A stretch of DNA of 24,028 nucleotides, taken from Escherichia coli. Its GTDB lineage: Bacteria; Pseudomonadota; Gammaproteobacteria; Enterobacterales; Enterobacteriaceae. The notes beneath the pieces were generated by a model. The model ran no database searches, was not told the DNA's origin, and saw only the letters and a list, made by a program, of their open reading frames with translations. This document shows positions 4,122-5,173 of this stretch, piece by piece; within the stretch, counting starts at the first letter, position 1; every line of letters starts with the position of its first letter. Both the position numbers and the translations under genes were made by a program. The stretch lies in NCBI RefSeq assembly GCF_003334305.1, contig NZ_QOWS01000037.1. The stretch is one strand, 5' to 3'.

Positions 4122-5081
4122 GTGGCACAACGAGATTATGTACGCCGCAGCCAACCGGCACCTTCGCGGCGAAAAAAGAGCACCTCACGGAAAAAGCAAC
4201 GAAATCTGCCTGCGGTTTCTCCCGCTATGGTCGCTATTGCTGCCGCCGTTCTTGTGACCTTTATCGGTGGTCTGTACTTCATTACGCATCACAAGAAAGA
4301 AGAGTCCGAGACGCTGCAAAGCCAGAAAGTGACCGGTAACGGACTACCACCAAAACCAGAAGAACGCTGGCGCTACATTAAAGAGCTGGAAAGTCGCCAG
4401 CCGGGTGTGCGTGCGCCCACAGAACCTTCTGCCGGTGGTGAAGTGAAAACGCCGGAGCAACTGACACCAGAACAACGTCAGCTTCTTGAACAAATGCAGG
4501 CTGATATGCGCCAGCAGCCAACGCAGCTGGTTGAAGTTCCGTGGAATGAACAGACGCCGGAACAGCGTCAGCAAACGCTACAACGCCAGCGTCAGGCGCA
4601 GCAATTAGCGGAGCAGCAACGCCTGGCTCAGCAGTCGCGTACGACTGAACAAAGCTGGCAGCAGCAGACGCGTACGTCGCAAGCCGCGCCGGTACAGGCG
4701 CAACCGCGCCAGTCTAAACCGGCTTCTACTCAGCAGCCGTACCAGGATCTGCTGCAAACCCCTGCGCACACGACCGCGCAGTCGAAGCCGCAGCAAGCTG
4801 CGCCGGTTGCTCGTGCCGCTGACGCGCCAAAACCGACGGCGGAGAAAAAAGACGAACGCCGCTGGATGGTGCAGTGCGGTTCGTTCAGAGGCGCGGAACA
4901 GGCAGAGACGGTACGTGCTCAGCTGGCGTTCGAAGGATTTGACTCGAAAATCACCACCAACAATGGCTGGAATCGTGTGGTCATTGGCCCGGTGAAAGGC
5001 AAAGAGAACGCAGACAGCACCCTCAATCGGTTGAAGATGGCGGGTCATACAAACTGCATTCGGCTCGCCGCCGGGGGTTGA
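4122..5081 (+). CDS. ftsN: Cell division protein FtsN
   Basis: 319 aa, GTG start, MAQRDYVRRSQPAPSRRKKSTSRKKQRN..., single TM helix, long Q/E/R/P-rich linker, C-terminal SPOR domain (RWMVQCGSFRGAEQAETVRAQLAFEGF...). Confidence 0.96.
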   Translation: MAQRDYVRRSQPAPSRRKKSTSRKKQRNLPAVSPAMVAIAAAVLVTFIGGLYFITHHKKEESETLQSQKVTGNGLPPKPEERWRYIKELESRQPGVRAPTEPSAGGEVKTPEQLTPEQRQLLEQMQADMRQQPTQLVEVPWNEQTPEQRQQTLQRQRQAQQLAEQQRLAQQSRTTEQSWQQQTRTSQAAPVQAQPRQSKPASTQQPYQDLLQTPAHTTAQSKPQQAAPVARAADAPKPTAEKKDERRWMVQCGSFRGAEQAETVRAQLAFEGFDSKITTNNGWNRVVIGPVKGKENADSTLNRLKMAGHTNCIRLAAGG

Positions 5082-5105
5082 AACCCTCAAAATCCCCCCC
5101 ATCTA
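5078..5105 (+). promoter_or_regulatory. Sigma-32 heat-shock promoter of hslVU
   Basis: TTGAAA (5078-5083), 13-nt spacer, CCCCATCTA (5097-5105), matching the sigma-32 consensus CTTGAAA...CCCCATNTA; the -35 overlaps the ftsN stop codon (5079-5081). TATAAT at 5104-5109 overlaps. Confidence 0.65.
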
Positions 5106-5116
5106 TAATTGCATTA

Positions 5117-5138
5117 TGCCCCGTACTTTTGTACGGGG
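5117..5138 (+). other. Perfect 8-bp stem-loop in the hslV 5' leader
   Basis: CCCCGTAC-TTTT-GTACGGGG at 5117-5136 followed by TTTGT; lies between the sigma-32 promoter and the hslV start (5174). Confidence 0.45.
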
Positions 5139-5173
5139 TTTGTACTCTGTATTCGTAACCAAGGGGTCAGCTC

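Follow-up and report, generated by a model that had tools for sequence, protein, structure and literature searches.

What is the perfect hairpin for that Escherichia coli carries between the essential gene ftsN and the hslVU operon, directly downstream of a heat-shock promoter? We addressed this question in a 24,028-nt stretch of E. coli DNA (contig NZ_QOWS01000037.1), termed the window in what follows; positions are those of the window unless an NC_000913.3 coordinate is given. A preliminary description, made from the letters of the window alone, had named the genes, the sigma-32 (RpoH) promoter and the leader hairpin, all correctly as judged from the sequence, the open reading frame (ORF) list and the K-12 annotation, and had suggested that the hairpin could terminate ftsN, stabilise hslVU mRNA or attenuate. 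The explanation that we favour, with a probability of roughly 0.85, is that a sigma-32 promoter drives hslVU and that a stem-loop close to the 5′ end of its transcript protects the hslVU mRNA.

Neither part is new: promoter and leader stem-loop were already known, and the stem-loop was dissected in 2009 and is curated in Rfam. A cmscan match to Rfam family RF02401 scores 63.6 bits against a gathering threshold of 42 (E = 3e-13), covers model positions 1–57 of 57 and ends at the hslV GTG start codon (5174-5176), placing it in the 5′ untranslated region (UTR) directly upstream of hslV, also named clpQ. By score and by location the leader element is a member of this family. Organism and gene context are those of the element in Lien et al. 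2009 (Open Microbiol J 3:29), and the window has exactly the 20-nt inverted repeat (IR), CCCCGTACTTTTGTACGGGG, that was quoted and mutated in that paper. There is no structural difference; the sole discrepancy lies in the transcription start site (TSS), placed 71 nt before the GTG there and 61 nt before it here. Several other Rfam models gave weak matches in the region (SNORD66, isrG, anti-hemB and Histone3), all far below threshold, and were rejected.

The functional evidence comes from the same study. Deleting 40 bp of the leader (delta-40), the inverted repeat (delta-IR) or the full leader (delta-L) lowered both mRNA and ClpQ; a substitution that destabilises the stem (S-IR) gave low mRNA, whereas one that keeps the stem in a new sequence (R-IR) brought mRNA back to the wild-type level; and in a rifampicin chase (their Fig. 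7E) the delta-IR mRNA decayed faster (Lien et al. 2009, PMC2681174). Drawing an analogy to ompA and papA, these authors concluded that the message is stabilised by its 5′ stem-loop (PMC2681174). Of the roles first proposed from sequence, stabilisation of hslVU mRNA has therefore been demonstrated experimentally (Lien et al. 2009, PMC2681174), and the experiments suggested alongside it (hairpin deletion or compensatory mutants, a lacZ fusion, half-life after rifampicin) had essentially been done in that work. As a discovery the present analysis accordingly carries little weight and raises no new question; its worth is in closing the finding with three small refinements, to the start site, the RNA covariation and the T-tract. 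What it adds in full is the TSS at 5113, conservation and covariation, the strand asymmetry, thermal stability and the non-conservation of the T-tract. HslVU dosage matters for heat tolerance, for the turnover of SulA and RcsA and for the control of LpxC, so precise knowledge of the leader is useful for engineering.

The RpoH promoter of hslVU adjoins ftsN so closely that the ftsN stop codon falls within its -35 element. The overlap of TTGAAA with that codon, and the -10 element after exactly 13 nt, are just as first described (5078-5083 and 5097-5105); the core of the -10, CCCCATNT, occupies 5097-5104. TTGAAA followed by CCCCATNT at a distance of 12–15 nt has a single occurrence in the 24-kb window and none in 100 dinucleotide shuffles. 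The sequence thus has the -35 TTGAAA, the -10 CCCCATNT and the separation of about 13–15 nt that define a sigma-32 promoter, and the start site falls, as it should, a few nucleotides downstream of the -10. Expression of clpQ::lacZ and its heat induction (30-to-42 °C shift) require rpoH, and a C-to-T mutation in the -10 (clpQ m1) abolishes RpoH-dependent, heat-induced expression (Lien et al. 2009, PMC2681174). The promoter itself was already known from the first description of hslVU, which that paper cites (PMC2681174).

Canonical E. coli sigma-32 promoters (dnaK, groE, ibpAB) have the same -35 TTGAAA and -10 CCCCATNT, the same spacer of 13 nt (14 if counted by the Nonaka convention) and a TSS some 8 nt further on, and hslVU shares with them a documented rpoH dependence and heat induction. 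It differs from them in that its -35 sits in the stop codon of an upstream essential gene, and in that its -10 is overlapped by a perfect sigma-70 TATAAT, at a non-functional spacing from TTGAAA of 20 nt. This TATAAT lies at 5104-5109 and has no usable -35; a scan of 4000-7300 for sigma-70 promoters returned none. The run of seven C's (C7) that spans spacer and -10 has been counted as belonging to the sigma-32 promoter, and 2 bp of it are deleted in heat-evolved E. coli BM28 strains (PMC10044804). Such a deletion in C7 (5094-5100) would cut the TTGAAA-to-TATAAT spacing to 18 nt, and its authors argue that it moves hslVU towards sigma-70 control (PMC10044804).

The start site was taken from SMRT-Cappable-seq, which captures 5′-triphosphate ends. 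In both growth conditions these data contain an hslV-hslU unit at NC_000913.3 4120362-4122348 on the reverse strand, with 143 and 76 in the first count columns, one per condition (Yan et al., Supplementary Data 1). Window position x equals NC_000913.3 coordinate 4127461 − x, on the minus strand there, and the capped end at 4122348 converts to 5113, which is 8 nt past CCCCATCT and 5–6 nt ahead of the stem; counted from this start, the stem begins at +6/+7. An earlier value, which Lien et al. 2009 (PMC2681174) take from the original mapping, puts the start 71 nt ahead of the GTG. It corresponds to 5103, within the -10 (CCCCATCT); this is geometrically odd, and 10 nt off from 5113. In the supplement of in vitro start sites obtained by ROSE (PMC10301672) no hslV entry was found. 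The discrepancy between 61 and 71 nt bears on the 5′-stabiliser mechanism: with the start at 5113 the stem lies 5–6 nt from the 5′ end, so that such a mechanism is geometrically plausible.

The 8-bp perfect stem with its TTTT loop is present at 5119-5138 as first described (CCCCGTAC at 5119-5126, TTTT at 5127-5130, GTACGGGG at 5131-5138), with an optional ninth pair between G5118 and U5139. It does lie downstream of the -10, as stated, but 13 nt after the end of that element and not about 20. Its folding energy is -15.1 kcal/mol (z = -4.9; 0 of 200 shuffles as good). Perfect stems of at least 8 bp are about five times enriched in the window, with about 11 distinct ones against 2.3 expected from shuffles; the leader hairpin is therefore non-random yet not rare, one of several such stems. 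When the first 100 nt of the transcript are folded from 5113, five nucleotides at the 5′ end stay unpaired. Between 30 and 50 °C the stem has a computed pair probability of at least 0.99, and in isolation it is computed to keep -3.9 kcal/mol at 80 °C. The stem does not pair with the Shine-Dalgarno (SD) sequence of hslV, whose computed accessibility is unchanged by temperature or by deletion of the stem. A stem that stays folded from 30 to 50 °C while SD access remains constant argues against a thermometer or SD masking and fits a protective hairpin near the 5′ end.

For comparative evidence, species-representative genomes were scanned with a pattern anchored on the SD and the first hslV codons. 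This returned 120 loci, 57 of them with a true hslV (from Enterobacteriaceae, Erwiniaceae, Sodalis and one Photobacterium); counts out of 58 comprise these 57 and the window. The TTGAAA-N13-CCCCATNT promoter is present in 57/58 sequences, of which 55 have the 13-nt spacer. In 49/58 the TGA inside TTGAAA ends an FtsN-like C-terminus (...CI(R/P)L..GG*), so the overlap of promoter and stop codon is ancestral and not an accident of E. coli. A strong hairpin (mean about -16 kcal/mol) stands 12–14 nt past the -10 in 44/58 sequences, with varied arm sequences. The GTG start of hslV is found in 57/57 orthologous loci, although the search pattern permitted ATG.

RNAalifold finds the hairpin in an alignment made by MAFFT from sequence only (A1), with 7 pairs showing double-sided changes. 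In several Erwiniaceae the 3′ arm is out of register in A1, and a covariance-model alignment (A2; 52 distinct sequences) was used instead. Here 89% of cells are paired, and 57 cells in 7 of the 9 pairs carry compensatory changes. The covariation score reaches 0.41, where shuffled columns give 0.19 and slid partners no more than 0.08. As the sequences share ancestry and A2 was itself fitted to the structure, these figures are supportive and are not to be read as probabilities. Stem cells with G-U or U-G number 34, those with A-C or C-A only 9. This wobble asymmetry favours an RNA of the sense strand; neither a DNA palindrome nor an RNA of the antisense strand would be expected to give it. Taken together, the breadth of the covariation and the strand asymmetry independently confirm, at the level of sequence comparison, the RNA structure predicted for the sense strand. 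Downstream of the hairpin, at 5140-5173, A1 shows strong sequence conservation of the leader (TATTCTGCATTTGTAACCAAGGGGTCTGCTCGTG in most Enterobacteriaceae), with no predicted structure.

The favoured explanation would then run as follows. Transcription from the sigma-32 promoter would start at A5113; after five unpaired nucleotides the RNA would fold into a very stable, GC-rich stem-loop of 8–9 bp; and this 5′-proximal stem-loop would, by its structure and not its sequence, shield hslVU mRNA from decay, yielding more HslV and HslU. Protection probably acts through hindrance of 5′-end-dependent decay (RppH/RNase E), by analogy with the ompA and papA leaders. The 5′ stabilisers of ompA and papA (Belasco laboratory) are likewise stable stem-loops near the 5′ end; as in these, the hslVU stem acts by structure and prolongs the life of the mRNA, and its removal shortens the half-life. 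That structure rather than sequence matters, as it does for stabilisers of this type, is seen both in the covariation and in the behaviour of R-IR against S-IR. The hslVU leader differs in being a single short hairpin, where that of ompA has two elements, and in having about 5–6 unpaired nucleotides before the stem, slightly above the ompA rule.

Several points weigh against this explanation, among them the limit just given for the covariation figures. Emory, Bouvet and Belasco are said to have found in 1992 that a 5′ stabiliser needs no more than about 2–4 unpaired nucleotides at the 5′ end. The hslVU leader has 5–6 with the Cappable-seq start, just past that limit, and would have 15–16 with the 71-nt UTR given by Lien and Chuang. 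The stability experiments were made from a plasmid pBAD promoter, so that the native 5′ end was not exactly reproduced, and neither an RNase E nor an RNase III motif is obvious in the leader (Lien et al. 2009, PMC2681174). Mangrovibacter yixingensis and Siccibacter colletis keep the sigma-32 promoter and lack the canonical GC-rich hairpin, in leaders about 40–45 nt longer whose best local structures reach -5.6 and -8.2 kcal/mol; the stabiliser stem is thus not universal in Enterobacteriaceae. In Citrobacter amalonaticus (about 125 nt) and Intestinirhabdus alba (about 300 nt) an insertion stands right after CCCCATCTATA, between -10 and hairpin, putting the hairpin far from the sigma-32 start, so that 5′ proximity is not universal either. 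The two insertions share their start, GACAAAATCATTC..., and the core of the one in C. amalonaticus, GTGAATCCCCAGGAGC...GTGACTGGGGTG, presumably resembles an ERIC/IRU repeat.

The features discussed are collected in the table.

Table 1. Coordinates of features around the ftsN–hslV junction and at the end of the hslVU operon, in window positions (CDS, coding sequence)
Feature	Position	Strand	Source
ftsN CDS, 319 aa	4122..5081	+	ORF list; = b3933, NC_000913.3 4122380-4123339
sigma-32 -35 hexamer TTGAAA, with ftsN TGA inside	5078..5083	+	sequence; pattern unique in window
ftsN stop codon TGA	5079-5081	+	ORF list, sequence
13-nt spacer; C7 run 5094-5100 spans spacer and -10	5084..5096	+	sequence
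sigma-32 -10 element CCCCATCTA	5097..5105	+	sequence
hslVU TSS (A), 61-nt 5′ UTR	5113	+	SMRT-Cappable-seq, coordinates converted to window
Palindrome on opposite strand and mapped antisense RNA 3′ end at 5114	5114..5138	-	Adams et al. Supplementary file 1
Leader stem-loop, 8 perfect pairs and UUUU loop; known 'IR' of the clpQY 5′ UTR	5119..5138	+	fold, covariation
Rfam RF02401 ClpQY_promoter, full-length match (hairpin, conserved leader, SD, GTG)	5119..5176	+	cmscan
Short T-run: TTT, then GTACTCTG	5139..5141	+	sequence; not called by terminator scan
Shine-Dalgarno AAGGGG of hslV	5161..5166	+	sequence; invariant columns in alignment of 47 orthologues
hslV (clpQ) CDS, GTG start at 5174	5174..5704	+	ORF list; = b3932
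hslU (clpY) CDS	5714..7045	+	ORF list; = b3931
hslVU operon terminator and mapped 3′ end at 7099	7074..7099	+	terminator scan (7074-7095), Term-seq, SMRT-Cappable-seq

The alternative that survives best assigns the hairpin and the UUU that follows it to ftsN as well, as a leaky intrinsic terminator and 3′-end protector of its mRNA, acting on transcripts from the cytR and ftsN promoters. We regard this as possible, at odds somewhat below even; such a role would add to that of stabiliser and not replace it, and would be weak and lineage-specific, within Escherichia at most. The leader shares with intrinsic terminators a GC-rich 8-bp stem and a 4-nt loop, 38 nt past the ftsN stop codon, and then U's. 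Termination strength was expressed as the discriminant d, which combines hairpin and T-tract by the formula of d'Aubenton-Carafa et al. 1990. With its tail TTTGTACT the E. coli hairpin reaches d = 9.5, against 15.3 for the hslU terminator, but this drops to 0.05 once the G5118-U5139 closing pair is counted, and a consensus terminator scan that calls the hslU terminator at 7074-7095 does not call the leader hairpin. The T-run that the preliminary description placed after the stem does exist, although it holds only three T's, with five T in the first 8 nt; unlike in intrinsic terminators, the U-tract is only UUU and then G.

Transcript data are divided on this role. Supplementary Fig. 5 of Yan et al. 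depicts, with no coordinate given, a cytR-ftsN unit that stops after ftsN, alongside an ftsN-hslV-hslU read-through unit, while their high-confidence list of transcription termination sites has none after ftsN. The Term-seq tables of Adams et al., which do list the hslU terminator, give no sense-strand 3′ end near 5141 (~4122320); ftsN is weakly expressed, and the missing peak is weak evidence only. With read-through transcripts of ftsN-hslVU in existence and no mapped sense 3′ end found, the leader departs from typical intrinsic terminators here too.

Orthologues were compared with d computed from core stems. TTTG or TTG after the stem is kept in all three Escherichia orthologues, but the T-tract is absent in 37 of the 45 distinct orthologous hairpins, which keep the stem (mean about -16 kcal/mol): in Citrobacter, Enterobacter, Kosakonia, Kluyvera, Cedecea and others the tail begins with C or G. 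The value of d exceeds 0 in only 8/45, namely the three Escherichia and five Erwiniaceae with T6–T7 runs. As the T-tract is not conserved, termination is not a conserved function of the hairpin. Of the claim first made from sequence, that the hairpin could terminate ftsN, there remains a possible weak side role in keeping with the cytR-ftsN unit, set against a borderline score, the lack of a Term-seq end and a T-tract that is mostly absent. The Erwiniaceae in question (loci L022, L048, L064, L021/L056 and L078, from some Pantoea, Tatumella and Rosenbergiella) have the hairpin followed by T6–T7 and d up to 55; this terminator shape lies about 6–35 nt downstream of the sigma-32 start and raises the question of how hslVU transcripts pass it.

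A wider version, which we consider unlikely, would make the palindrome dual-purpose: for cytR/ftsN transcripts a leaky terminator and 3′ cap; for sigma-32 transcripts, where it occupies +6 to +27, a 5′ cap that guards against decay and does not terminate; and on the opposite strand a structure that stops or protects an antisense RNA. If this were true, three different RNAs would owe an end to a single palindrome of 20 nt, and the T-tracts specific to Escherichia and to some Erwiniaceae would mark lineages that gained the terminator role.

That the relevant role of the hairpin lies on the opposite strand, as the 3′-end structure of an antisense RNA starting inside hslV, is improbable. The proposal arises from a Term-seq 3′ end at 4122347(+), labelled 'antisense ftsN' and with sequence ...CCCCGTACAAAAGTACGGGGCATAA up to the end (Adams et al. 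Supplementary file 1), which converts to 5114(-), 5 nt beyond the stem on the antisense strand. On that side a U-tract is absent (d = -41), the G-U/A-C asymmetry points to the sense strand, and the mapped end adjoins the base of the sense TSS (4122348), so that it could equally well be a library artefact or a place where an exonuclease passively stopped. We know of no phenotype for an antisense RNA at the hslV leader.

It is very improbable that the hairpin is a transcription attenuator or an RNA thermometer, stopping or masking hslVU transcripts until relieved by heat or another signal. What invites the idea is a hairpin with a short T-run inside the 5′ UTR of a heat-regulated operon. Attenuation, the remaining role in the preliminary description, is contradicted by experiment: with the stem deleted or disrupted, mRNA and protein fall, the opposite of relief, and expression recovers once the structure is restored (Lien et al. 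2009, PMC2681174). An alternative antiterminator pairing is absent from the computed folds, and Term-seq (Adams et al.) lists no 3′ end within the hslV 5′ UTR. As for a thermometer, Lien et al. 2009 (PMC2681174) reported no thermosensitive segment, and the folding at 30–50 °C given above speaks against both a thermometer and masking of the SD: the stem stays at least 99% folded, and the SD does not pair with it and has the same computed access with or without it.

Least probable of all is that the palindrome works as DNA, as a cruciform or as an operator bound by a dimeric regulator, which its perfect 8+8 repeat directly downstream of the promoter (+7 to +26) might suggest: from genus to genus the arms change sequence freely but still pair, whereas an operator would show the reverse; G-U is tolerated four times more than A-C, an asymmetry of strands that only RNA explains; and the substituted but paired R-IR is functional, with the effect persisting under the heterologous pBAD promoter (Lien et al. 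2009, PMC2681174).

The surroundings of the element are those of the E. coli chromosome. In the ORF list the gene order is cytR-ftsN-hslV-hslU-menA, on the + strand in region 3000-8040. Positions 4900-5400 (501 nt), used as a query, were matched in 5426/5426 complete E. coli genomes, at 100% identity to many chromosomes, and 5060-5200 is identical to E. coli K-12 MG1655. At the far end of the operon the hslU terminator consists of GATGGGGCTGAAAGGCCCCATT and a T-run; its 3′ end, 4120362(-), is common to Term-seq (Adams et al.) and SMRT-Cappable-seq (Yan et al.) and, at window 7099, directly precedes the menA start. Read-through into menA-rraA has been reported (Yan et al.).

Other perfect GC-rich hairpins of at least 8 bp lie at 197-222, 8620-8643, 11797-11816, 16732-16754 and 21083-21101. 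The first two are flanked by A- and T-runs (A6...T6 and A4...T4, respectively), like bidirectional terminators, and that at 8620-8643 coincides with the rraA-side 3′ end of the Term-seq table (4118843+).

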